Positions 15,107 through 63,921 of a DNA stretch of 64,000 nt are shown here, one piece after another. Position numbers and translations under genes: made by a program. The stretch comes from Microbotryum violaceum (taxonomy: Eukaryota). Position 1 is the stretch's first letter. Each line of letters starts with the position of its first letter. The notes under the pieces are model-generated. The model ran no database searches and had not been told where the DNA came from. It saw only the letters and a list, made by a program, of their open reading frames with translations. The DNA lies in assembly GCA_001244265.2 (NCBI GenBank), contig CDLV01000013.1:930001-994000 (forward strand), given 5' to 3'.

Positions 15107-15676
15107 TTTGGAAAAGTGTGGGTGTAAGGGAAAAGAGTAGTTTGGGCGGAGGGGATGAAGGGGTTGAGGGGGAGTGGTGGGAGGTGGGAGGCGGAGCGTA
15201 CCCGGGCAGCGGATGTGGGTGTAAAGCTTCGCAGCCTTTTGTGTCTGCGAGAGTCTGCGGTAGCGCAGGCGGATCATATTTCGCAGCGAGCGCGCACGGA
15301 CCGCCGCAGTGGCGTCGGCCAATCCCGACTGGGCGAGCACGTCCATGACATTCGCGACGCTGGGAGCATGGAACTTTAGGCTGAAGTCGACTACGGGAAT
15401 CGGGGTCTAGAGAGATGCATTCCAAGGTTTTCAGCTTTGCGAGATGTCCAACTGAAGCACCGAGCGAGTCGGTGGAATAAGTTACACAGAGAACAAAAGG
15501 AGACAGGAAGCGGGACTACTGCAACCATGAACTGCGAGGATATCAAGAAATGAGAGTACCGAGAACAGATAACGAAGAGAACAGAGACGAGGAGTGATCG
15601 TGGGTGTAAGCAGCTCCGAGCTGCCCTTATTTTTTGGACGTTTCGACAAAAGCATGGTATAGAGAAGGCTGCCCCT

Positions 15677-18736
<3,060 letters not shown>

Positions 18737-19501
18737 GGTTGAAGGTCGGGGCGTGGGTAGGCAAGGGCCGGCTCGGAACGAGCTGGGCGTGAGGCTTCTG
18801 CCCGGGAGTGCAAGGCGAAGCTGATGAATATGATCGGGCAACGAACGCGGAGGCCTGAGAGTACCGGCGAGGACGGCGGAAAAAGAGAGCAAGACGCGAA
18901 CCCAAGTGATGGCCGAATCGGATAGCACGGTAACAAGGAGCCGGTCGAATGAGTGGGCGGTGCGGAGGAGTGAGCTAGAACGACTTCGCGAAAGTGGTCG
19001 GTGGTCGCGGGCTGCCGAGCGAGGCCGAGCGCCGGGGTTGTGATTGAGGCGCGTGCAATGTCGCGTCGCGCGCCATGTGCCTCGAGCTAGGGTGCGTCTG
19101 GCACATGTCAAAATCGGTTCAACACGATATCAAAAATCCGCGATCACTCCCCCTCGTCTCTATTCTCTTCGTTATCTGTTCTCGGTACTTTCATTTCTGG
19201 ATATCCTCGCAGTTCATGGTTGCAGTAGTCCCGCTTCCTCAGGCTGTCTCTTTTTGTTCTTTGTGTAACTTATTCCACCGACTCGCTCGGTGCTTCAGTT
19301 GGACATCTCGCAAAAGTGAAAACCTTGGAATGCATTTCTCTAGGCCCCGATTCCCGTAGTCGCAGCATACCATGCGTCCGCTGGCTCACTCCCAAGAACG
19401 ATCCACTGAGCGTAATGTTATTCCCATTAAAGCGTAATTTTGACAACGGCCGGTATCGCTAGAGATCCCTCGCTCCTGTACGCCACACCCCTCGTGGGCG
19501 A

Positions 19502-40300: not shown

Positions 40301-43300
40301 TAATGCCGCGAGCAAATGGTGCAATTACCAATTACGCGCGCGCGGTTACCCCCGAAGCTTGACCCATCTACCCAGGTAGTAAGGTGCAAAGTTCACTTAC
40401 AAATGGTGCATTCTTCGCGCAAATTTGGTGTGTTTGCCCCGGAAGAAAGGTGCGTTTACCAATTAAGGATGGTGCATCTACCACGTAGCGGGGCAATCCG
40501 CTCTATCTCGTGTAGTATGCCATGTACCACCCTGAAACTTGACAACCCTCCTACATGATCATCAAGTACGTCCACCTCTAGTAAGAAGCACTCTCACCAG
40601 GACCCCATGTAGTTGGAAATCGTGCGTGCACCCGGGCGGGCTCTCGCCGCGGCCGAGTCGTCCGGACCCCGGGCCGAGTAGGCCCCCCCACCCTAGGCTG
40701 CAATACAATGACTAAGACGATCAATCATCTCGGAGCTGCGGGATGTGTCCATATGGAGTGGGACACCTTGTATAGCATTCCTCGCCGTATCTCCTGCCTC
40801 AGCTTGAACTTGGACAAGGAAGATCATTGACTGCCTTTCCAAACCATCCGTGAACCTGTCCTAACAAAGCTAGTAGCACATCACCAAGTGTTCTCGCAAA
40901 TGTCACTAGCCGCGATCATTATCTCATTATATGTATGTATATACATCCTTCCGTTCTACTCATAATGGTACGGCTTAGGATCGACGACCTCACTCCTCTT
41001 CTTGCATCTGCTCAAAATAAACCATGACCAATGTGAGTGTTCTGATGACAAGGAAGGGTCCGATGCAGTTTGGGAGAGCCCGTACCTTGAGCAATTGACT
41101 CCAACATCGGATTTGTATTGCGAGCCAGGCATTGAGTGCAAGGCTTCAGCGAAGCCGCGCAGCTTTGAAAAAAGATTCTTCCCTCTCGCGCTTCGATCGG
41201 CGAGGGCTTGGGGCGCTTGTAGATATAGCGGCAATTGACCGAACGGCCAATGTACGTGTTTGATACCTTGGCAAGCAAGCAACGACCTCGAGTGCCTCAG
41301 ACACCGGCAGAGGGGGAGTAGGGTCGAACCTTACGATCCTCGGGAGTCTCATTGGCGGCGCATCTGGCATTGAACCAATCGTTGCAATTGACGGTGCCGG
41401 GTTGGGCCGCGGGCTTCGCGAAATCAACGGAGAAGTACATTGAGCGTCGGGATTGGGCTCAGAGGTGTACATTGTGCCGATCGAAGGGTCAATCAGAACG
41501 GGGGTAGGCGCACAAAATTCAATACCGGGCGATCCCAAGGGCTTCTCTTCGGTTGCCACTGGTGCTGTACAATATATTGAGCGTTCTCCAGCAGATTGGG
41601 CAGGTTACCGGGCGGTTCGCTGACGGAGCCCCGTTGAGCATCTACGAAAGACATGTCAATGCGCTGTGTCAAGGCCGAAGTATCGACAAACTGACTGCCG
41701 AACCTACCTCTGACAATAATGGCGGCCCGTTTTTCGACTAGGTCCTTCACAACGTCCAAATAATGCAGCAACGTCCCTTGCTTGACGTCGCTCGAGAGTA
41801 ACATAGGCCCTACAGGAAAGAGAATGTGCGAAAACTGATCAGCGCCGAAGGCTGAAGACGGTGAGACTCGCAAGAAGGCACAGGATTGGGCAGGGCCTCC
41901 TTCGCGACTGACCCAACGCCATCTGTTCGTTCGTACCCATCGTCGCAAGAATGGTAAGCGGGGCGCGGTTCTCATTCAGATACCGCCAAGACAAATCAAT
42001 CCCAAGGAACCGCGAACCGTCTTCGGCAACGTTTCCCATGGTGGCAAAGGCGATCAGGATATCAATTGAATGCAAGAATGCGAGTACGCAAATGAGTGAC
42101 TCGTTGTTCGTGGCGTTGAAAGGTTGAAAACTGCGGGACACACGCACGACGTGTAAGCCATGCATTAGCAGAATGCAAGCGCGACAATGCGTCGGATGAA
42201 AAAGAAAACACACTAGGCCACTCCGCGAGTCATCGGTTCAGACGCATCGTTCAAGCAGAATTTTCGCAGTTGAGCTGTGCGCGATAGGGCGTATAATGGA
42301 GAGGAATGTGTGTACGCCTTCGCAGCCTTGGTCCGGAACATGCTCTTGAGTTGCTTGGCCCAAGTGACCCGGTTAGGATGGAGAGTGACTCGGTGGATCT
42401 TCTCCCACTTCTTACAATAGTCGGACATAACTTTCTCGCGTGAATGGACCGAGAACGCGAGTCAGCGGTGCGATCAACAGACAGATAGAGGGTTCTGTTG
42501 GACATATCATGACTGTGATTCACCTTGGAAAGCACTGCTTCGGGTGCTGCCACACTGTTGCACTATCTGATGAGCGACAGTTCGCATAACCGCGGCCGGG
42601 TTCCTGACCGATTCTAGGGTCCGCCGGCCCTCATGGTTGCCAAGCGTGTAAATCAAGGCGATCGAGAGATTGCTGGCTGGGACCACAATCTTACAAAAGC
42701 AGAGTGCAGGTAACGAAACGGGTCTCAGCGCATGCGCAAAAGCCACGAACCCAAACACAGCAAAGAAAGGATCTCTGAGGCTGAAATTTCGGCTAACTCA
42801 CCTTCAATTGTGAAGAGCATTCGCGCACGACATCTTTGTCCTTCGGTCGCACATTGTAGTATATATTCCCATCATCTCCTGTGTAGCGCATGCAGGCGCC
42901 CGAGCACTGGTGCGATATGCGAAGCACTTCTTTGAGTGATTCCTTCCAAGTGGATTGCAAATTGTGGCCGATCAGCGGGTGCCATTCGATCAATGTCAGG
43001 TGATCCGTCGGATGCTGATGGAAAGAGATCGATGGAGCACGGTGAGATGTTTCTACTACGGCGAGACAACGTTCGTAATTGCAGGCCGTCCATTCGTGCT
43101 CCTGTTCCGGTTGGTTTCGCCAATGAAGGATAGGAGGAGGATCGGTGTGGAAGAATTTTGTCAGTTTTGCTTCCTAATCAGCAACTTCAACTAGCCATCA
43201 ATGACTGCTTATGCTTAGAACCAGTATCGACCTACTTCGGTGGCCATGTACAAAGGAAGCTTGAGAATTGGTATGGTGTCCTTGAGCGTCCATTCATCTG

Positions 43301-44445
43301 CTTTCCTTCGGTCGCCAAGAATCAGCGGCCATTGCCCGTAGTCGGCTTTCTTTTCCGCCGACCAGAGGAGGTTCGACGACATGATCGCTTGACGTTTGGC
43401 TTGGATTGTGTCATACTCCAGCTTTAGATGGTTGGGTGCACAATTCTCGAGGAGGTTGACGACTTGGCGCAGTCGATCCATGGCTTCTATGGCTTCTTCG
43501 CCGCCATCGGAGTAGCTGGCTTCGGAGTTGTCGACGGCGGGGTCTGAGTCGGCGTTCGAGTCGACATCGTCGGAGCAGCCCTCAGGAGTCATTGAGATTT
43601 GATTGGAGTGCGTCACTGAGGGAGATTGGTCAATAATATCGGGTTCCCGCTGGCCCAAGTCTCTCTTCTGGGTAGACGTAGTCGAGGACATCTGGGAGGT
43701 GCCACGTGCAGGTGGGCGGGTCATAGTCGATTGGTCGGGTCCCAATGCGGGGTGGGCCACCCTTATTCTGGAGCGTTGCTTTCATCTGCTGACTAGACAT
43801 GACGTATGCGACACGGGTTTTGGAACCAAGGCGAGTATCGGTCGATGGCAACGGATGGCAGGAACTGGCGTGGCGCGGTGAACATGAGTCGAAAGTAGAA
43901 GTAGGCATTTGGCGCGACGCGACGCGTCAAGCAGCCAGACAAAATTGAGCAAGTTCGGTGGCGGCGATGCGCGGCTGTGCAGTGGATGCAGGGCCTACTT
44001 TGCTTGGGCAGTGACACGCATGATCGGATCACTTGACCCGTTGTAGTACCCGGTAAAAGGAAGAGTGAATATTTCGATGCCTGGGGGCCTTCGTCGAGCC
44101 CGTGGGGGGAGTACAGGCACGATTTTCAACTACATGAGATCCGGGTGAAAGTGCGTCTTACCAAGGGTGGTCATACTTGGTGGTCATGTAAAAGAGCTCG
44201 TCAAGTTTCAGGGTAATACATGGCATACTACACGAGATACAGCGGATTGCCCCGCTACGTGGTAGATGCACCATCCTTAAATGGTAAACGCACCTTTCTT
44301 CCGGGGCAAACGCACCAACCAAATTTGCGCGAAGAATGCACCATTTGTAAGTGAACTTTGCCCCTTACTACCTGGGTAGATGGGTCAAGCTTCGGGGTAA
44401 ACGCGCGCGCGTAATTGGCAAATGCACCTTTTATTCGCGGCATTA
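40301..44445 (-). mobile_element. Long-TIR DNA transposon, probably Mutator-like (MULE), defective
   Basis: 40301-~40628 is the imperfect reverse complement of ~44115-44445. Internal spliced minus-strand gene has a C..C..C..H WRKY/GCM1-like segment and GIDLSWRYLNENRAPLTILAT, resembling the first catalytic-D region of MULE transposases. Confidence 0.75.
40950..43910 (-). pseudogene. Degenerate MULE-like transposase
   Basis: Fragments HQCSGAC..RECSSQLK|IVV..YTLGNHE, MSDYCKKW..HPNRV, GIDLSWR, PMLLSSD; broken by stops and frameshifts; no CxxH or third catalytic E seen. Confidence 0.55.
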
Positions 44446-45691: not shown

Positions 45692-46474
45692 CGCTGCCAC
45701 CTCGTCGACGACCGACACCCACCACCCCATCTGCTCGGGGCTTGATTGGGCGGCCAAGGCGCTACCTCGACGTGACGCGGTCGCCACCGCCCGCGGTTAC
45801 AACAGGTCGGCCCAGGCATTGAGGAAGCGCGTCGAAGAGCTCGCCGAGGTGCGCTTCGTCAAGAACACCTCCGCACACACGGCAAACGCACAGCTCCGCG
45901 TTCTGCGACTGTTCGTTCACTTCGTCGCGCGAGTCGAGGAGACAAGCGTGTCGGACACAATCGCAAAGTTCTTCATCCCCGGTGTCGCCACCCCGATACC
46001 CGTCAGCCTCGTGCAGGCTCTCATGGAGGACGCGACGGTCATCTTGGGCTGGGGAACGCCAGCTCGTCGTCCGAGTCGTCATCGAGCTTGCGCTTCGACA
46101 ACCGGCCCACCGTCGCCGCCGCCACGTCCTCCATGAAAGCCTGCACGAGGCTGACAGGAATCGGGGTGGCGACATCGGGGGTGAAGAAGTTGGAGATGGT
46201 CTCCAACACGCTTGTCTCCTCGACCTGGGCGACGAAATGTACGAAAAGGCGCAGAACACGGAGCTGGGCGTTGGCCGTGTGCGCGGAGATCTTCTTGACG
46301 AAGCGCACCTCGGCGAGCTCGTCGACGCGCTTCCTCAATGCCTGGGTCGACCTGTCGTGACCGCGGGCGGTGGCGACCGCGTCACGTCGAGGAAGCGCCT
46401 TGACCGCCCATAGGTCGTACCCAGGCCCCGAGCAGAGGGGGTCGTCGGTGTTGGCCGTCGACGAGGTGGCAGCG
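45692..46474. repeat. Diverged inverted duplication (~340-bp arms, ~90-nt spacer) of a putative YR N-terminal coding region
   Basis: 45692-46033(+) and 46123-46474(-) both encode KALPRRDAVATARG..LRVLRLFVHFVA..PIPVSLVQA.MED. Confidence 0.9.
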
Positions 46475-49474: not shown

Positions 49475-49503
49475 CGAGGGGGATGGTCCTTTACTACTTA
49501 CTA

Positions 49504-51264
49504 CCAATGGGAACCCATTAAATTAACGGGAGGATGAATTTCAAGAATCGAACAGTGTACATGATCCCTGAAGCTTTTTAGAGCTGAAGGTTTGTTCCAG
49601 AAAATTCGGCGGCGCGAGCTTGGGAAATTGACGACGGTCTCAACATCGGGGCGCCGCGAGTTTGGGAAATTGACGACGATGTCAAGGATTGTTGCTCTGT
49701 GCATTTTCGTGTCCTTGGACTTTTTGATCATTCCGGACACAACATCCATGTCGATTTCGAGCAGTGCTGTTGCGCTTCGAGCCATTTTCTCTTTGGCGAC
49801 CGGAAAAGCTAGTTGGCGAAACAATTCTCGTCGGCGGAGCATGTTCGAAACGATGAATGGGAAAGCACTGAACCGTGTTGTTCGTGGGCGAGTACGCGAT
49901 CTGATCGATTAAATCACTCGGTCGATGGAGACGTCGGGGATGGATGAGTGCGCCCCATCAAGCTGAATTTTTTAAAATCGGAGGTCCGTCCGTAGTGTAG
50001 AGTTGGTTAATCCCCTCCAAATGCTTATTCCACACGCTTGATGTCGTCTTCATGCACCCATCGTACGTTATGCCCGAAGACTCTCTCTGAACACACCAGG
50101 CAGCAGAAGAGTCGGGAACGAGCGTCGGTGAAGTAATCATTCCATTCAGAACGGTTCTCGGTTTTGAACTGATCGGATGCTGGCGCAAAATGCGATGTCA
50201 CATTACCGGGATCTTATTGTGCGGGTTCGGGATGCAGTGGTGGACGTCTGGGCAGCGTTTCTTTAGAGTCAGTCCGACGCTGAAACGTTCCCGCGATTCT
50301 TCTGGACTTCGAGTCGTTCTGTTCGGTTTGGAGCACGTCAACAGGTTTGATGCGTATGCTCTGTGGTCGGAGAAGCAATGACGACGCAGCGGAGTCACGG
50401 GACTCACCGCTTGTTGCCTTCTAAAAACATACCCATTTGAACAAGCATTACAATTGGGATTGCACGATCAAAGGAGCGCTTGTAGGGATAGCTCTTTCGC
50501 AAGCGGATTCCTCCTGGAGTATCCTTCCAAGTGGTGCGCCCGGCGAAAAAGCTCCTACAGGGGATCCATGCTGAAGTTGATGCTGCTGCACACGAGCTGC
50601 CCAAGACTGCATTTGACAACCACATCATCGAGTGCTGACACTGGACTGTTGCGTAAGAGCTGACCGGAATACACATACTGCGCTTGATCGGTGCGGCGGG
50701 AGCATCGGCTGTCGCTAGTGGTGGACGCGAGGCTTAACACGTTGCCGAAATTCGAGCGTTGTGCACTACAGTGGGCTGACCTCGATGGTGCGGAGGTGTA
50801 CAAGATCAGAAAGCAGTGACATGACGGCGGTTGTGTAATAGCCTGTCTTAGAGATGCGAGGAAACTCGATCCAAGTTAGAACAAGGCAGTATGTACTACC
50901 TAATGATCGGCGCGCTCAGCCGGGGTCCTCCTATCCGGGGGAGCATTGTTCAAACCGATCGGCGCTGAAATCGCGCTCTCCTATAGGACTTCAACAGCCA
51001 CGCGCTATTTCGGCCATTTCGTCCCATAAAATCTTAGAAGTGCACCATTTTCGAGGCTGGACCCCCCCCCTTTTTCGAAACGAAACCTTCAGCTCTAACG
51101 AGCTTCAGGGATAACGAGCTTCAGGGATAACGAGCTTCATGGATTGTAGGATAGTAGGATACTAGTAGGATACTAGTAGGATACTAGTAGGATACTAGGG
51201 GAGTATGATAGATAGAGAAACTGTAGATAGTTTTGAGGATTAAGGATAAGGATAGTTTCAAGGA
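49504..51264 (-). mobile_element. Non-autonomous Helitron derivative 1
   Basis: 3' end is hairpin cccgttaatttaatggg + ttccca + TTGG|T, homologous to the two other copies. Putative 5' TC at 51264 followed by tandem repeats at ~51096-51200. Interior is decayed and unidentified. Confidence 0.6.
51096..51198. repeat. Minisatellites (taacgagcttcaggga)x3 and (tagtaggatac)x4
   Basis: Read directly. Confidence 0.9.
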
Positions 51265-52029
51265 CCAGTGGGATCCCGTTAAATTAACGGGCGGATGAAA
51301 TTCAAATCGCATGATAATCGAAGAACAGTCTACATGATTTCAGCAGAGGTAAACAAAAACAAACAAAAAACGCAAAGATTTTTCATTCATCGCCGAAACA
51401 GCCTGCCCATTGAAACATTTGTGCAATGAGATCTGGACGGTGGCTTGCTTTGTCGTTCGGCCAAAGTGCAGCCTTGATTTCCGGCCATTCGCGAATGGAG
51501 TTGCGCGTCACCGTGATGAACAGCACGGAGGCTTTCCAGGTTTGATAGTGCACGCCAGCGTAACGTCCGTGCAAACAGTACGCAAATAATTGTGAGCCGG
51601 ACACGGCTGGCCCGGGCGCGCCGCATCACGTGACAGACGCTAGCCTCGCCCCGCGCGTCAGGCCGCGTCAGGCGTCAGGCCGTCAGGCGCCAGGCGGAGT
51701 TCTGCTGTAGAAGCAATGTCATGCAAAGTCACGCGCTTGCCGTCCATTTAATGCAATATAAGCGTAAACACTGTTTTACGTCAACGAAAAAGTGAAAGAA
51801 AATACAGGGAACGCTGTAGCTTCGTTCGACCGGCTCGAAAAATACAAAAATCGCTACAGAGCTTGTACATGACTTCTGATGGGACCATGGACACCACAGG
51901 CAGGTGCGGCAGACACAACAGTATGCTGGTCCATCCATCACAGGCGGCCCTCCGGGCCGCAACCTAATTTAAAACAGCGATTTTAGGTACATTCCTTAAT
52001 TCACACTTTTTTTTTACTAATTAGGGTAA
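51265..52029 (-). mobile_element. Non-autonomous Helitron derivative 2 with Rep remnant
   Basis: Hairpin cccgttaatttaacggg + CTGG|T 3' end; LFITVT..WPEIKAAL..HRPDLIAQMF Rep motif (51383-51604); 5' ~400 bp homologous to 53081-53480. Confidence 0.85.
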
Positions 52030-52412
52030 TACGTTTAAATATCGTTCAACTGCAGTGATCATTCAAAGTCCGCCAATGGAAGCGTTACTTACTATAATTT
52101 GAATCTTCGCTCAAACTTTATGAACTGTTTTTTATGGATGAGAGAAGCGAGGGACCTGTGCCAATTCTGCTCTAATCGGCGCAAACACGGCGCCCGAACC
52201 GCCAAGGCCGACACTCCCGAACGGACCGCTGACACCACGGGCGCCGGAGTGGCCAAGCAAGGAAGAGCCCTGATGTAGCAACTACTGCATTGTCCGCCTT
52301 GTCTCACCGACCAGAAGTACTATAGACCTGTACATGGATCGTTTTCCCAGAGTGATACATCACATATTGCAAGAGATACAGGCGTCTACACTATGTGGTA
52401 CCTAGGTCCGAA

Positions 52413-52542
52413 TGTAAGATATGTGCCTCAGCATAAAATACGTTCTTGACCGCTAGGCTAAAAGCAAGCCGTAAATAGAATTCGGCAGTTCTAGCTACCG
52501 AGAGGCTACTTATAGGGCTGTTCTGTAAGGCATCCCCTTACA
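52413..52542 (-). mobile_element. Solo-LTR-like repeat (TGTAA...TTACA), second copy
   Basis: Reverse-complement homolog of 34454-34592; flanks ccgaa/atgaa match only partly. Confidence 0.7.
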
Positions 52543-53080
52543 ATGAACGTGGTACAAGAATGACCTCGAATGTGATCCCAAAGTCCGCATCGATGTGATC
52601 CCAAACTCCCTCCGATGTGGGCCGAGATTGGCCGTTCTCGGGACCCCAGTGTTCTGTTATTCACGCCATTAACCTCCGTTAACCTAATTCGACTCTCCTG
52701 ACCACTCGCGCGAGTCTTAGCGGAATAGTGGTTCGAATTGCAGCAAGACGAAGGAGAACATTGGTGGTGTAGGAGTTGTTAAACAAATACCTCAAGCGGT
52801 GAAAACCCAGCCTTCTGGGAAAAACCGCAAGAGATTGATCTAAACGGAAGAGAGTCCGAACTTCTTGGTGATACACAGGGATGGTGGGCGGGATGACAAT
52901 TGGCAGCTTTGCGACCCAAGCTTCTGGATTTTAGTCGGCTACAACTGATGATGGAGCAAGTCCACTGATCGTCTCAGCATACCTTTGCGACAAAGGCAAT
53001 AAAGACAGTTGGGGCGCGGTTGGTAGGACCCCGAAAGCCCAACCAGAGGCGCATGCGGAAAAACGCCCTTTTTTTGGCCT

Positions 53081-54906
53081 TTACCCTAACTAGTTACCCT
53101 AACTAGTAAAAAAAAAGTGTGGGTTAAGGAATGTACCTAAAATCGCTGTTTTTTACTAGGTTGCGGCCCTCCGGGCCGCCTGTGGTGGATGTACCAGCAT
53201 ACTGTTGTGTCTGCCGCACCTGCCTGTGGTGTCCATGTTCCGATCAGAAGTCATGTACAAGCGCTGTGGTGACTTTTGTATCTTCCGCGCCGTTCCAACG
53301 AAGCTACAGCGCTCCCAGTATTTTCCTTCTTTTTTTCGCTCACATAAAACAATACTTCCACTCATATTACATTTAATGAACCGCAAGCGCGTGGCTTTGC
53401 ATGATATTGCTTCTACAGCAGAGCTCTGCCTGACGTGCGAGGCGAGGGCTGGCGTTTGTCACGTGATGCGGTGCGCCGGCGGTGGAGTGTCATTCCGGCA
53501 GTCGACCAGCGGCATTAGGGGCTGAACAACCAATTTGCCCGTATGGCATTCGACCAGCGGCATTAGGGGCTGAACAACAAATCAAACCACGTAAATAATC
53601 CTGCGCCACTCCCTCGAACCTTTCCTTTCTCCCTCCCACTCTCATCTAATTTTAGTGACACTCATTCAAGAACAAACCCTCGCTGCTATGTCCCGGTCCC
53701 AAGGTCGCCAGGGACTCAGGGAGGGCCATCGCAGCCTCGCCAAGTCTTGGGCGCGAGGGTAGCGCCGTACCATGGGCTACCATGGGCCTGCTCGAGCGCC
53801 CGCTGCTGGGTGCCCCGCGGCTCGACCGCGGGTTGGGATACAGCCAAAGAGTGGGTCCTACCAGGCCGAGACCGACGCACCCACAACCTTCCTACGTCAA
53901 GCACGGAAATGGCGATGCTTATCTGCGATTCCGACACCAACACCGGAGATCGTGGACCGCAAGACCTTATTCTCCAGGTGCACGGTGATTGATGTCCCGA
54001 TGGTCGGCCCAAGTACCAAACCGTTAGCTCGCTCCATCCGTCTGCGATGCCTCTCCGGTACCCACTACTCTTCCCCGCGGGGAAGATGGCTTCCACCCCA
54101 ACATTCCTCTTTGCGGTTCGATCGAGTTGGGCCACTCTTCGCCAAAAGACAGCAACAAAGAAGGTGAGGACGAGGAGGAAGGGGACAAAAAGAACGGTGA
54201 TGGTGAACATAAGCATCTTTGGCTCCTCCTCGGGTGTTCCCATTCTGTTAAGGCGCGAGCACAGACTGATATTGATTGTTTGAACACCTACGACGACGGT
54301 CAAGTAAAGGGGGTCAAGGTGGTGAGTCTCGCGTTCACAAATCCTTTGCGTTCTACTTGCACAAACGCGACAAGCCCGCATGGCACTCGACGTCCCTTCC
54401 CGGCGTTCGTGATCGAAAGATACTCCCAGGCTGAGGCCGATCGACTCAACTACATCCAGTTGCATGAAGAAAACCTACGCCTCACCACGACCCAAGGCAT
54501 CAACGGACTAACCCCGGACCAAACTGGATGCTCGATGACTTTGGGCTCGATGTTCAAGAATAGACCGCGCGACATCATGCAGCGATACCAGGATGCGATG
54601 GCGTGCGTTGTCAAACATGGAAAGCCTCCGCTGCTCATCACGATGACGTGCGTTCCTGAATCACCGCAAACCAAGGCTGCACTGGGGCCGAATGACAAAG
54701 CATGCAACCGTCCGGATCTCATTGCACGAGTGTTTGAAGCCAAGTCTGGCAGCAAGCGACATGCAGGCTGTTTTGGCGATGAATGTAGGATGAATGGATT
54801 TTGTTTCTTCTTCGTATTGGGGTTTTTAACCTGAAATCGCGTAGACTGTACAATTATCCTGCTATTTGAATTTCATCCTCCCGTTAATTTAACGGGTTCC
54901 CACTGG
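53081..54906 (+). mobile_element. Helitron derivative 3 (internally deleted), inserted just inside the left TIR of the P-like element
   Basis: Rep N-terminal motifs plus 3' hairpin cccgttaatttaacggg + ttccca + CTGG|T at 54880-54907. Confidence 0.9.
53688..54745 (+). pseudogene. Helitron Rep/helicase N-terminal fragment (Helitron_like_N)
   Basis: HNLPTS..EMA, YPLLFP/GEDGFHP (frameshifted), RLNYIQ, PRDIMQRYQDAMACVVKHGKPPLLITMTC, NRPDLIARVF; truncated before the HUH motif; no PIF1 helicase. Confidence 0.9.
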
Positions 54907-55384
54907 TTTTGGCGAAGTTTTTTACCCTATTTTGGCCCCAAAATGTCAAAATTTCGCATGCGCCTCGGAAATATTATCAAAATGTGTTCTACATGCTCCA
55001 AAAGTCGCTCAAAAGTCCTCGAAAACGCGTTCCGAGCGTATGCGGGCGCTGCCGCGGCCTATCGAAAGTGGCTTGCGGCGGTGCCCGCAATGTCTTCGAA
55101 GCGAGATGGTCCCATGGACTGCAGTAACCCTTTCAAGACGCGTGAATGTACTGCACTGCGTCCTTGCTCTGTATTGCTAATCTCTAAGCCTGCCTCTCCG
55201 CGACTTGTGTCGCTCAATTACATTGGCCTCCCTTTGAGTAGAACAGCTCTGAGGTGGCTACACTCATGAGCAGCTCGATGGGCAATCAAGCTGGCCCAGT
55301 TCAGCGAGAAACTGGTATCGCGAGCATCAACAAGCGGCGGAAGTTTCAAGTGTGTAGGCTGTATAGTACCGAAGATGCATGAGT

Positions 55385-58300
55385 TCAGATCGAAATTACG
55401 CTAGTTAAGCTTGGTAGACGCACGATTGGACGTAATGAGCTGTTTGCCTTGTCAATGGTCTCGAGTACGTAGCGTTCCTCAGCTTGTCTGTCAGCTTCGT
55501 CGTAAGCGATTTGCACGTCGAGTCTGGCCAATGAGAAAGGAGAACAATATGAGGTCCGGATTAAAAGGTAGAAGAACGCTTCAGCGCACGTGGCACAATG
55601 AATTGTCCACTCACAAGGCTGCCTCAACGTCAAAGTCCAGAGCTGGCGATCGAATTGCACGGTCGACAGCTTCCCGCTCGTTTGGGTCCAGTTTCACAAC
55701 ACCTTGGCACGTGCTACGCCGCATGCCATCAAGAGCAGAATCCAGCAATTCGGTGCGGAGCAGACCTTGATCTTCCTTGGTAGGATGATGGTCTTCAAGA
55801 TCTACTTCAAGTGGGCATGGTATCCCGTGTCAGATACGCATCACTTGTAGACCAAGTCGTTCGGAACTACCTTGAACTGTTGTGCCATGGGCGAGTACGT
55901 CCTCGACGAGTATGTCAGGTTGCGGACCTTGGTTGCGTCTGTTGGACGCGATGCGGTGCACAGGCTCCCACATGCGTAAACCTGAAAGCAGTTCACGTGC
56001 AGTATTTGCCGCTGCAAAACTGGTGAGAGAGATGTCGCCATCACTGGGGTACGTTCGCATCGCAACAAGGTCAAGATCGTCGAGGTCGTTGTAGGTATAA
56101 TGGTAGCCTTGACGTGATCCCGCCGCTTCGGTCTTAAACTTCCTCATGAGCTCCAAGAGTGCAGTGACTTTGCCAGTTGCCTGTTGGATTCTAGCCGGGT
56201 TAACTACTGTATAGATTAGATTAATTTATGAAGAACGCACCTGCAAGAACTCTAGAGCATCGAACTCCTTTACAATCTGGCGTATACCCCGAAGAAGTGC
56301 TCCACCATTTCTGTGCCATGCCGCCAGGGAATGAACGATTCTTTCGGCCAAAAATCTCGGTAGTTGCGGACGAGAGCAATCGTTGAGTCAACCATCTTCC
56401 TGACCCCATCAAGCGTTTCTTTGGCGAGGAACGAGTGAGAGCTAGATCCGGGGCGACTTCGGACAAAGTCATACCACGCCTCGAACGTATATCTGACAAC
56501 GAGCAACATCCTGATACGTTCAAGGGGCTGAAGCGACCGGTTCTGGATGGCATCGTGTAACTCGCCACATAAGAAGAGATATACGACCGCATCGGGGTCG
56601 AGTTTTTTGTCTTCAGCGAGTTCGGTTACGAGTTCGAGCGTCGCCTTGGAGAATGCCCGATGTGTTGCATTGTCGTCTTGACGATCACGCCCGACCACAT
56701 CACGACGAGACAGAGTACGACGCGACTCCAGTCCGCCCAGTATGGTGAGCATATCCTGGTAGGCAATGCATCCGAGACCACCGAACAGCAATCTTGCTCC
56801 AGAATCGATAGCGTTCCTCAGACATTTGGCCAGGCGTTTTTCGTCCCGACAGAAGACTATCGGCGTTCCCGCGACGTTGACGGTCGATATAGTGATCTCA
56901 GGAAACACTCCGTCCGGATCTGGGGAGGGGAGGGTGTATGATGACGCGTTCCTTGATCCGGTTTGAGCAACAGCGCCACCCTGATCGCGCAGAAGGACGG
57001 CAACATTACGTTGCAGCACACCCTCGCTTGCAGCACCATCTGCGGAGATGAATACCAGAAGGTGTGCGACGCAACGTTTTATTAATTCTTGTATCACTGA
57101 ATGTAACTGTTCGGTCGCGTCCTCCGCGTTCGTAGTTTCGCCGATCACAAAAGCGGCAAACACCTGTGCTGGGGAGCCAACATCGTTCGGTGCTATCATG
57201 TAAGCTCGGATCTGAATGAAGAGGCGACACATGTTAAAGCCTCATGGAAATGAAGTACAAACTTAAAAGAATCATTGCCACTCACTTTGGTTCCAGCAAC
57301 CGGGGGTCAGGTCCGCTGAACATTTCAGGGAGTTCACCCGGAGTTTCGTAGATGCGTGGCGGACCAATTGATCCGATCAGCTCGTGGCGGAATATGCCCT
57401 TCGTACGTAGTTCGCGCTCTAAACTGAGGTCTTCTGAGTAGTATGGAGTGGTTCGCATCCTGGATCGACACTTCGTGTCGTCTACGTGCAAATTGAACGT
57501 TAGGCCGTCTGCTTCGAGTTTCGCGCAGACACGATCCATGTTGGACTTGTCGAGGCCGAGGCGCATCCTGCCTGATGTCGCTCGGTCCATTCTGCAAGCA
57601 CCTCGATCATTCAGTATGAGGTTGAATTGAAGGAACGAAAGAATGACGGTACTCACTGCAATTTTCGGCTTGTGGATGCGCCGATTGTAGCCTGCAGCAC
57701 TCTCAGAGCCATCGGAGACGCCAGCGCCATGGCTTGCTCGAAGTCACGCAGCGCTTCGGACCGCACAAAGCCTCGCATTGATTTGCCCTTGACCATCCGA
57801 GCGTGCTTGACCGTAGCCGCTTTTACCAATCCCTCCAAGATGTTCGCTCCGTCAAATTCTCCTGAGGCCACACCTTGCGCGAATCGTAGATACACGGCCC
57901 CTTGACCGTTGTCATCCAGGATCTCTTCTAGTCCAAGATGTCGCCGGTAGATGGCCGAGAGAAGTGTATCGCCCGCGACATATTTCTTGTTGGTGTATTT
58001 GCGAGTTGCGCCAGCAGCATGTTGACGTCGAAGAGCTGCTCGACAGGATGAATCCTTAGGAAGCCTCGCGCATTCTTCACCCGGTAAGCTTGGTCCGTCC
58101 TTGTTGATCGAATCTCGAGCGCTATACTTGCGACAATTCACACTGATGATGCGCGGTGCTCGATGATCGTTGCGCCACTTCCATTCATTCGCTTCCAATT
58201 TGTCCACCTCCTTCCTCTCGAACTCCGTCATTGGTCGTTTACCAATTTTGGGATAGAGGCGCAAACAAAGCGTCCGTCGAGGAGGGGCCCCGCCACCCTG

Positions 58301-60077
58301 CGCCGCAGTTGATGAAAGATAATGCATCGCCGTTTCAGACGTAAGGCCGGGGCACGGTCCTAGCGAGGGCCTGGTAGCAGTCGAGCCAGAGGCGATAGGT
58401 CTGAAGAAATTGCTGATGGGTTGGAGGTTGACACATTTCTTATTGCCGAGATGTAATTGAAATCGTGCCTTGCACAGCAAGGCCGCCATTGGAACCAAGA
58501 CATAACAACGTCCACACCGCACGTACTTTGGATTGTTGACGTCGACATTCGATCCCGGGCAAAGATCTTCGACTTTTTCAGCAAACCTCCTGAAAAGAGG
58601 CGGATGGTCGCGAGCCCACGTCATATGCTCCTCGGGGTGAGCTCTCGAGCTTTCGTCGGCTTCGATGCCTTGGTGAAGGTCGTTTGAAGTCGAGAAGTTG
58701 GCGGGTTTTTTGAGGATGATGCGACTCGTTGATTTGTTGGCTTGATTGTCGCTGCCTTGCCGGACTCTGCCGACGTGCTCTTGCTGCTCAGTGTTCCGGC
58801 AGCGGATCCCCTCCCAGACTTTGCCTTTAATTTTGCGCCCGTGGCAACGATGGATTCGATCTCTTTGGGATCCTCGACAGCACCAACCAGAGAGGATAAA
58901 CGACAGAATTGACGGAGCCGTGACATGTGAGCGCGCGCTGCGTTGAATGACCCAATCTCGAGCACCTCCGTCTCCACTGCATTGATCGTAGCCGGCCAGC
59001 ACGAGTAGCTGTCTTCCTGTTGTTCCGCCTTAGGAGTATGAGGGAACTCGTTTTTGATGTCCAGCTTCAGAAATTTGAATAGCGTAAGGACGGCCGTCCG
59101 AGTAGCCGCGGTGATCGGAGTGGCGGAGAGTGAGTTGATCACAGACCATGTCCGCTTGTGCATGTTGATGCGGGCCAGGACCCAATGGCTGTCGGAGCAG
59201 AGGGGTAGAAACCAGATTGACTTTGAAGTCGGCGTGTTGCGCATGCAATCGCCTAGCTCGATGAGATTCCGATACTGGTTTGGCGGGCCGAAAAAGCAGG
59301 CTTTGAAGACCGAATGAGGATCCGAGTCGGGAGGGCGAGCCTTTACCAAGGAGATGACGGTGGAGGGTATAAGTCCATACGATGTTTCGAAATCGGGATT
59401 CTGCACTCGTCCAGCTCGAAGGACGCTTTCAATTGACAAGTTCACCGCGGCTTCACCGAGCCAATCATGACCTGGGTAGAGACGCGAATAAGCAAGTTGC
59501 CTCAGATACGAGATGAATACGAGTGGCCAGCTGAAGGATTGGTGTACTGACTTAAGAATCTCAGGAGATAAACCAAACTCGTTCCACTTGCAAGAAGAGG
59601 CAATGGTAGAAGCCCGTCTTGCTCTTGCCATTGCAATCCGTTCAGTATGCGACGTGCGACAGCGATACGGTTGCGGTCAATTTCGTTGATAACGATAATT
59701 TTGTCCATCCATCGTTGAGCTCGCAGCGCCCAGCTTTGAACGTCTTTTGCTCGGTCGTACTCTGACCATAGCCGATCGGCGCCGAGCGGCAAACACGTCG
59801 ACCCGACGGCCAAAGATCGATATCTTTTCTTGCGTGCATTGATCAGAGCATCGGTAGCGAGAAATGCGTCTCTGGTCTGAAGAGTCGGGTAGGGTAAGTT
59901 CGAATACTGGGTGGGCTCGTCTTTGGACAACTCGATGTGAAGAGACGCGTCGGCGGGAGCGACATCGAAGGCGAGAAGCTCGGCAACCGTCACGTTGGTG
60001 AGCGGCAATAATCGATCAAAGTCATCGTCGTGCAAATAGTAGTCCTGATCTTCGTCAAGAAACAAGCATGGAATCAT
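55385..60077 (-). pseudogene. Ulp1-like protease + Cys-rich region + P/THAP9-like DDE transposase, spliced and frameshifted
   Basis: SHW..INSL..QQEDSYSC (C48-type triad); RCGRC..HLGNKKC; LHVDDTK; SADGA; DEKRLAKCLRN; RDRQDD; TEMVEHFFG; GT-AG introns; frameshifts near 58620 and 56285. 3' end approximate. Confidence 0.8.
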
Positions 60078-60810
60078 TTCGTCGTGCTATGCTCCAGTGT
60101 CAGAACGAAGTGAAGCGGAACGGAACCTCAGGGGCCCCGTCATTTTTATCTTACTCGATAGGGGTATCTAATCCCTAATATTCTTTAACAGCCACTGAAC
60201 TAAAGTGATCAGCGAAAATGGCTAGTGACTTGTTCAAGCGCGAGCATCGCGAAGCGCGTTTCGACAAACGGGCCCAAAGCGATGCCGTAGGCTGCTCAGG
60301 GTAGGCCAAAATTGGGCCGACTCGGAAAATGTCAAAATCTGTGCATGCGCCTCGGGGGCGAAACGTGTGTTTCGTCCCAAAATGTCAATTTTTTGCGATG
60401 CGCCTCGACGATTTTCAGGATTTTGGGTCCTCAAAATGTCAAAAAAAAAAGCGCCTCCGGCTGGGCTTTCGGGGGTCCTCGGTTGGTGCAAAGGACAGCA
60501 AAGGGTCTGCTGAGAGATATGCGATTTAGCTCGTTGCCCAACAAGGGCCTGGAGCAAAATGCCCCCACAAAGAATTTGCAGGGATCCAAGTGCAAAGTAC
60601 ACCGTGCAACAAGCTTGGGTGTATCGAAGCACTTACCCCGAGCTACTCATAGTGAGCCACGTCGGGGGTTTCATACCGAGCTGCTAGCAGCTGTGAACGT
60701 CCGGCAAGATTGAACTCTCGATCAGCGACCTCGTCAGCTGGGAGGTAGTCTTGGGAGTGAGGAACGCACCTGTCCCTACAGGTGGTGAACGCAGCCACAG
60801 AAGCTGGTAA

Positions 60811-61333: not shown

Positions 61334-63921
<2,588 letters not shown>

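Follow-up and report, generated by a model that had tools for sequence, protein, structure and literature searches.

A C48/Ulp1-type protease joined N-terminally to a P-superfamily transposase in Microbotryum and other basidiomycete fungi

Does a fungal DNA transposon encode a protease and a transposase in a single protein, and what would the protease do there? The question was raised by a 64,000-nt stretch of Microbotryum violaceum contig CDLV01000013.1 (assembly GCA_001244265.2, positions 930,001 to 994,000), hereafter called the window, in which an initial annotation had proposed a Ulp1/SENP-like cysteine protease fused to the N-terminus of a P-like transposase. The stretch in question is the 5' part of a DNA transposon of about 6.55 kb that belongs to the P superfamily. 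The reading that we favor, with a probability of roughly 0.6, is that an active isopeptidase would be tethered to the transpososome and would remove a ubiquitin-like modifier, with SUMO as the likeliest candidate, from the transposase itself or from chromatin and repair proteins close to it.

On the minus strand, an open reading frame beginning at ATG 60077, the presumed start codon, runs through ..LLRFL up to a GT at 59551, and the frame of 59676-58621 carries HDWLGEAAVN, WFLPLCSDSHWVLARI, VINSL, and QQEDSYSCW. Excision of 59551-59472 (80 nt, GTCAGT..CAG) joins the two frames as LLRFLS-HDWLGEAAVN. This is the intron of the initial annotation with one boundary corrected from 59550 to 59551, and its splicing was observed: the exact joint was present, together with five more downstream GT..AG joints, in contigs of X3 and X5, two putative RNA runs (their RNA status is a guess) from one study of a related organism. 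The joint was not seen in run X1, which behaves as unspliced DNA, or in run X2, which is sparse, and the joints listed for the contigs did not include introns 2 and 3. Introns at approximately 57590-57653 and 57220-57285 are predicted from the sequence. Exon 2 (approximately 1819 nt) contains the protease core, the linker, the Cys-rich region, and the transposase region bearing a helix-turn-helix (HTH); the protease core through the HTH is thus encoded by one exon of a single spliced gene.

Exons 1 and 2 were open in two of the 19 sister copies of the element (L002 and L013), and four annotated proteins (P0001-4, Microbotryum silenes-dioicae by source name) read through exon 2; separate protease and transposase genes did not occur in intact members. 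In the window copy, the C-run at 58638 is one nucleotide short (C5>C4), which shifts the frame, so that the upstream frame stops at 58621-58623. The initial annotation had recognized this frameshift, placing it near 58620, and had regarded it as the only lesion between the two domains, which is true up to the HTH region; more lesions lie downstream. The identical shortfall was found in 10 of 20 copies, as would be expected if protease and transposase were separate products divided by a fixed or programmed frameshift. However, in a substitution tree of 17 near-full copies, C5>C4 was scattered and differed within five sister pairs (L007/L009, L004/L006, L010/L015, L011/L016, and L002/window). 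This pattern is better explained by homopolymer miscalling, repeated slippage, or gene conversion than by an inherited split, and the shortfall at 58638 may be an assembly slip. Furthermore, no break was present in the other 10 copies, the four database proteins, or 107 homolog gene models. A programmed frameshift was rejected because of the scatter, and separate products appear scarcely credible. Most other frameshifts among the copies were private or common to two or three copies.

The C48-type protease was found where it had been placed, with all of its motifs. Pfam Peptidase_C48 matched the exon-2 piece of the window marginally (20.8 bits against a cut-off of 20.7, E 4e-4) and dropped to 20.3 bits when the linker was included, and it gave 23-26 bits on P0001-4 and 25-28 bits on the sister loci. 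A PDB profile search with 115 family members returned yeast Ulp1 as the best match (E 1.2e-20), followed by SENP1, SENP3, SENP2, and SENP5. The AlphaFold2 model of the L002 protease domain had a predicted local distance difference test score (pLDDT) of 91.7, and its fold matched SENP5 (Z 16.7, root mean square deviation 2.8, 165 residues), SENP3 (16.6), NEDP1 (15.5), SENP1 (15.1), and Ulp1 (14.3), that is, Z 14-17. The genome's best C48 match (60.5 bits, with Asp in the triad) was a different locus, L031 (G000:C7:18005-18283), which is probably a host Ulp gene and showed no transposase core in its 3-kb locus.

The His-Asp/Asn-Cys order with the oxyanion Gln and the Trp after His was present, the window residues being His 59187 (followed by Trp), Asn 59136, Gln 59019, and Cys 59001. 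The motif QQEDSYSCW is indeed present, whereas its final Trp is private to the window copy: the Gly>Trp change at 58998, directly after the catalytic Cys, corresponds to Gly in 18 of 19 sisters and to a TGT codon in one. Of 112 aligned domains, 111 have the His, 103 the Trp, 107 the Gln, and 107 the Cys, and the third triad residue was Asp in 102 and Asn in seven. The Asn, which had been noticed from the start, occupied this position in all four related families seen in the genome. Together with the low Pfam scores, this might indicate that the domain serves chiefly to bind SUMO or to target the protein, with catalysis weak or lost in the Asn subclade. Nevertheless, the Asn subclade retains His, Trp, Gln, and Cys, and Asn is accepted as the third residue of CE-clan triads (PMC1847702). 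The four Asn proteins of the tree set also formed a single clade in both the protease and the transposase trees (support 0.96 and 1.0), suggesting that the change is old and has been tolerated under purifying selection. Decay was rejected as the explanation of the Asn in view of this conserved subclade, and a role without catalysis seems very unlikely. The ratio of non-synonymous to synonymous substitution rates (dN/dS) of the protease was 0.24-0.28 against the divergent copy L026 (89% identical; 29/141 synonymous and 25/444 non-synonymous changes, p 9e-7), a substitution pattern that shows purifying selection on the protease. Intact copies very probably encode an active protease.

Downstream of the linker, the Cys-rich region had a dN/dS of 0.32 together with the HTH (against L026), resembling the protease and unlike the linker. 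It presumably binds zinc; the first Cys of its last CxxC reads Gly in the window copy (58081), and zf-BED matched it marginally in a single homolog (P0024, 20.8 bits against a cut-off of 20.6). PF12017, the HTH family of P-type transposases, passed the cut-off in four of 26 homologs scanned, remained below it in P0009 and P0010, and gave no match on the window itself. The DDE residues of the window are D 57482/57479 (DDT), D 57040, and E 56302, and 1-nt shortfalls relative to L002 were found near 57306 and 56287. D(2)H, located after the second Asp, is a signature of the P superfamily (PMC8230255); it lies at 56845/56836, with His read as Arg in the window copy, and the wider motif D-x2-H-x2-K-x2-R-N was present in 105 of 120 listed homologs and in L002.

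To obtain the transposase fold, we modelled P0006, which comes from a sister family and shows 54% identity over the stretch compared; the pLDDT was 71, with low values in the C-terminal third. The best match of this model was the Drosophila P transposase (Foldseek E 2.5e-13, compared with 5e-5 for RAG1), and comparison with structure 6P5A gave a Z of 27.0 over 396 aligned residues, the helical insertion domain among them; GTP is a cofactor of the canonical animal P elements. Transib (12.3), ISCth4 (11.3), RAG1 (10.7), and Hermes (9.9) gave far lower Z scores, and membership in Mutator, hAT, or Transib/RAG was rejected, since Z was at most 12.3 for the folds compared against 27 for P. Pfam detected no transposase family on the DDE exons of the window or on P0001-4, apart from weak MarR matches below the cut-off, and the PDB sequence profile also found no transposase; the P assignment is therefore based on the structure, the motifs, and the PF12017 matches among homologs. 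THAP gave no Pfam match in 36 long proteins and its C2CH-F pattern was found in none of the 120 listed homologs, and KDZ gave no Pfam match in any scan, no direct profile comparison having been made for it. By its modelled catalytic domain and terminal inverted repeats (TIRs), as well as its target site duplications (TSDs), the element belongs to the P superfamily, although not to the animal type with THAP. The proposed N-terminal fusion to a P-like transposase is thus borne out by the C48 match, by the shared exon, open in L002 and L013, and by the P fold of the sister-family model.

To see how widely the fusion occurs, we used a Mycena homolog's transposase core, without the protease, as the query. 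The search admitted only proteins of 1114-3548 amino acids, so that shorter protease-free relatives could not appear, and returned 134 proteins, of which 120 were listed, 119 of them with fungal names across the Agaricomycetes. A precomputed PF02902 assignment was attached to 63 of the 120, and the family profile, which was seeded partly on these proteins, detected the protease in 107, upstream of the transposase in every case. The 13 homologs without it had 130-526 residues before the transposase core, compared with at least 575 in those with it, short N-termini of the kind that truncated gene models would give. When the search was reversed, with the protease as query (21 matches), all seven genuine matches of at least 600 amino acids continued into the Cys-rich/transposase region, and shorter ones ended earlier; P0023 and P0029 (repeats) and P0025 (tandem, an unrelated C48) were excluded because they do not belong to the family. 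Across the 102 proteins that have protease and transposase together, the identity matrices of the two domains correlated (Spearman 0.79, reached by none of 500 permutations), and 26 of 29 supported protease splits recurred in the transposase tree without a supported conflict, indicating that the two domains have travelled together. The protease-P fusion is the usual architecture throughout a broad basidiomycete lineage and is not peculiar to the window element. The genome also contains at least three further protease-P families (L055-L067, L033, L040, and L052), approximately 45-60% identical in protein and all with His-Asn-Cys; despite this divergence, those whose ends were found share the AGGACCCC termini.

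The single gene of this cut-and-paste transposon encodes a protein in the order of an N-terminal extension, C48/Ulp1 protease, flexible linker, Cys-rich putative DNA-binding region in the place of THAP, and HTH/RNase H/helical insertion/C-terminal domain. The protease would stay tethered to the transposase and would hence be delivered to the element ends and the target chromatin. There it probably removes a ubiquitin-like modifier, for which SUMO is the most likely single candidate at roughly even odds. The substrate could be the transposase itself or neighbouring silencing and repair proteins, and as an outcome the transpososome might be spared inactivation or degradation and the repair of the donor break might be steered.

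Several points weigh against this proposal. Exons 1-2 are broken in 17 of 19 sisters as assembled, no RNA contig spanned both the protease and the DDE exons, the dN/dS values all come from one divergent copy (L026), and the transposase model is that of the sister-family P0006 and not of the window family's own protein. With regard to the modifier, the window family reads W-L-G-E-A-A-V-N where Ulp1 has W-L-N-D-T-I-I-E, and the column of Ulp1 Glu455 is acidic in only 40 of 102 homologs and Asn in 50. The SENP and NEDP1 fold scores are close (NEDP1 with 15.5 stands among the SENPs) and leave specificity unfixed, and CE enzymes are known to switch between SUMO, NEDD8, and ubiquitin (PMC4961225). 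SUMO would thus not be distinguishable from ubiquitin or NEDD8 by the modelled fold.

The same tethered design could therefore be imagined with a deubiquitinase or deNEDDylase, shielding the transposase from the proteasome or acting on cullin ligases. The score of NEDP1 exceeds that of Ulp1, the family profile also matches XopD, ChlaDUBs, and OtDUB, the third-position Asn occurs in a bacterial CE alignment with SseL/ElaD (PMC1847702), and some Ginger1 transposases have OTU domains instead of Ulp1 (PMC2836005). On the other hand, SUMO proteases headed the profile ranking with 1e-20, ten orders of magnitude ahead of the best bacterial enzyme (7e-11), and the Asp of W-L-x-D was retained in 74 of 102 homologs, and we consider a modifier other than SUMO in this design unlikely, though the most serious of the alternatives.

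Viral CE-clan proteases cut polyproteins at Gly-Gly-like sites, and the protease might similarly cut its own polyprotein to free or activate the transposase. The N-terminal position of the protease and the flexible linker fit such self-processing, the Cys-rich region has a near-invariant G-G(-G), whose loose motif was found in 96 of 102, and poxvirus I7L, African swine fever virus pS273R, and the adenovirus protease share the fold (Z 9-11). However, among the linkers that could be delimited (62 of 102, median 207 amino acids), any GG was found in 25 and [LIMV]xGG in three, and the conserved GG sits between Cys residues of the putative zinc cluster, where a cut would presumably split the domain. 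Self-processing is disfavored because the linker has no conserved Gly-Gly site, and it seems unlikely, somewhat less probable than a deubiquitinase or deNEDDylase. Removal of a ubiquitin-like modifier by the tethered protease remains our preferred explanation.

The element was delimited by comparison with its copies. A search of the genome gave at least 37 matches, at least 16 of which were near-full sister copies of 97-99% identity. The full length, defined from the sisters, is 6.54-6.58 kb with 29-bp TIRs starting with AGGACCCC and 8-bp TSDs; in the 10 sisters with both ends, the TSDs were exact in five, matched at 7/8 in two, swapped but exact in two, and imperfect in one. The two with swapped TSDs, L007 (G000:C2:2089001-2094424) and L009 (C2:2141353-2146764), are inverted sisters bearing each other's duplications, which points to ectopic recombination that inverted the approximately 47 kb between them. 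Over the 17 near-full copies, C>T and G>A accounted for 463 of 1028 substitutions relative to the column majority. In the X3 and X5 contigs, high-depth joints without GT..AG at L002 2182-7096 and 2788-7160 skip 4.4-4.9 kb, which suggests that non-autonomous derivatives with internal deletions are abundant in the related organism.

The window copy spans 60479-53025 and is flanked on each side by the exact TSD ACCAACCG (Table 1). Compared with the sisters, a deletion of approximately 917 bp at 55078, with the 7-bp microhomology CCGCAAG, removed its last exons. Its 3' subterminal region carries a Helitron-like insertion of approximately 1.8 kb with a Rep fragment (54028-54834) and a right end consisting of a hairpin followed by CTGG. 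Relative to L002, it bears substitutions of the Gly after the catalytic Cys, of one Cys of the Cys-rich region, and of the His of D(2)H. Because of the deletion, the insertion, and these substitutions, the window copy is dead and cannot be autonomous. The insertion belongs to a Helitron-like cluster (49500-54906) in which one hairpin end recurs at 49503, 51264, and 54866; telomere-like ACCCTAA units lie at the left end of the insertion, and a related insertion seems to be present in this subterminal region of L010 too.

Table 1 Features of the protease-P element in the window.
Feature	Position	Strand	Basis
8-bp TSD, left copy ACCAACCG	60480..60487	-	identical to 53017-53024
5' TIR, 29 bp, begins AGGACCCC	60451..60479	-	start common to all sisters having the 5' end
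Exon 1, 526 nt, coding for the conserved N-terminal extension and the first protease helix	59552..60077	-	dN/dS 0.26-0.29 against divergent copy L026
Intron 1, 80 nt, GT..AG	59472..59551	-	joint L002 2428->2509 in X3/X5 contigs, mapped to the window
C48/Ulp1-like (CE clan) protease domain, W-L motif	58899..59567	-	Pfam, PDB profile, model, fold comparison
K/S/T-rich linker, weakly constrained	58600..58898	-	dN/dS 0.55-0.60 (p 0.13)
Cys-rich region in the place of THAP: C-x2-C..H..C (58516-58435), then CPGL..GGG..W..C..CxxC	58060..58520	-	
P-transposase-type HTH at the end of exon 2, which also encodes the protease core	57654..57760	-	PF12017 in homologs
RNase H-like DDE domain and helical insertion	56270..57590	-	motifs; fold of sister-family P0006
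C-terminal exons; introns ~56240-56181, 55614-55524, 55423-55359	55078..56269	-	X3/X5 joints; sister comparison
Helitron-like insertion, 3' subterminal, not part of the P-type element	53083..54906	+	Helitron_like_N 67.7 bits
3' TIR	53025..53052	+	sequence comparison
8-bp TSD, right copy	53017..53024	-	pairs with 60480..60487

The element was then compared with known systems. P-element termini are usually CA..TG; these canonical termini were not found in the window family, whose termini are AGG..CCT, likewise those of the related families whose ends were found. Like the P element, it has TIRs of approximately 30 bp, an 8-bp TSD, and a single intron-containing gene. It shares with the Drosophila P transposase and THAP9 (6P5A, 6PE2; PMC7776569, PMC8230255) the HTH, the split RNase H and its DDE residues, the D(2)H signature, and the all-helical insertion, and the P domain order has been described (PMC7776569, PMC4168063). 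Unlike them, it has no THAP but an N-terminal C48 domain and a different Cys-rich region, approximately twice the protein length, and an identity of only 13-14%. P elements are also known from rusts (P-1_PSt, P-1_MLP, and P-2_MLP of Repbase; PMC3164196), likewise in Pucciniomycotina and with 8-bp TSDs, and fungal P elements with such TSDs occur in rusts and Allomyces (PMC3164196, PMC5751038); the word protease does not appear in the main text of PMC3164196.

The protease resembles Ulp1, SENP1/2/3/5, and NEDP1 in the CE-clan fold and the W-L, H-W, and Q-x5-C motifs, and differs from them in an identity of only 13-20%, Asn for Asp in the Microbotryum-containing subclade, and a divergent substrate-binding surface. 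Among transposons, Zisupton carries a Ulp1/C48 domain. Such domains with an intact triad have been reported on Ginger1 and Mutator (PMC2836005), Crypton (PMC3212892), and CACTA (PMC8978399), where control of transposition through SUMO or ubiquitin was proposed but not shown. The protease is C-terminal in Ginger1, forms a second open reading frame in CACTA and CryptonS, and is patchy elsewhere, whereas in the window lineage it is N-terminal, attached to a P-type enzyme, and near-universal. In the literature searched, which did not extend to Repbase, subscription papers, and supplements, no account of Ulp1 fused to a P-type transposase was found; the available text of PMC13608869 and PMC10175614 and a term search of PMC12730594 yielded nothing on such a fusion.

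Taken together with the breadth of the homologs, this points to a large lineage of transposons in smut and mushroom fungi that seems to have been overlooked, whose parts are known and whose combination and breadth were not found in print. A survey of 1,730 fungal genomes, which speaks of "single occurrences", counted 11 P elements that have a transposase domain and, in its available text, names C48 merely as a generic accessory filter (PMC5751038). Since a single search gave 134 P-type proteins and at least four families are present in this genome, P elements of fungi appear to be badly undercounted. A bolder and tentative suggestion, which we hold to be rather doubtful, is that a basidiomycete P branch swapped THAP for an obligate N-terminal SUMO isopeptidase, co-inherited since before the Pucciniomycotina/Agaricomycotina split, which would counter SUMO-dependent silencing or degradation and would have been missed by Pfam-based surveys. 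If so, fungal P elements would not be rare curiosities. Ulp1 domains recur on unrelated transposons, and in the sources cited above their job has so far been guessed. Because the protease here is near-universal, under selection, and joined to a type of enzyme for which assays of excision and integration are established, and because recent open copies of 97-99% identity exist, the role of a transposon SUMO protease would be directly testable with a single Cys mutant.

Other features were observed in the neighbourhood. An intron-rich actin gene lies directly upstream of the element at 61334-63780 (minus strand), and its 3' part has a tandem duplication of approximately 180 bp (61404-61740). Two elements of approximately 4 kb with 150-250-bp terminal inverted repeats, 95% identical, occupy 15388-19362 and 40301-44445, and an FHA-like open reading frame was recognized by eye at 18227-19129. 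Finally, fold-back pairs with arms of 292 nt and 342 nt (87-89%) were found in transposon debris at 45692-46474 and 51688-53435.
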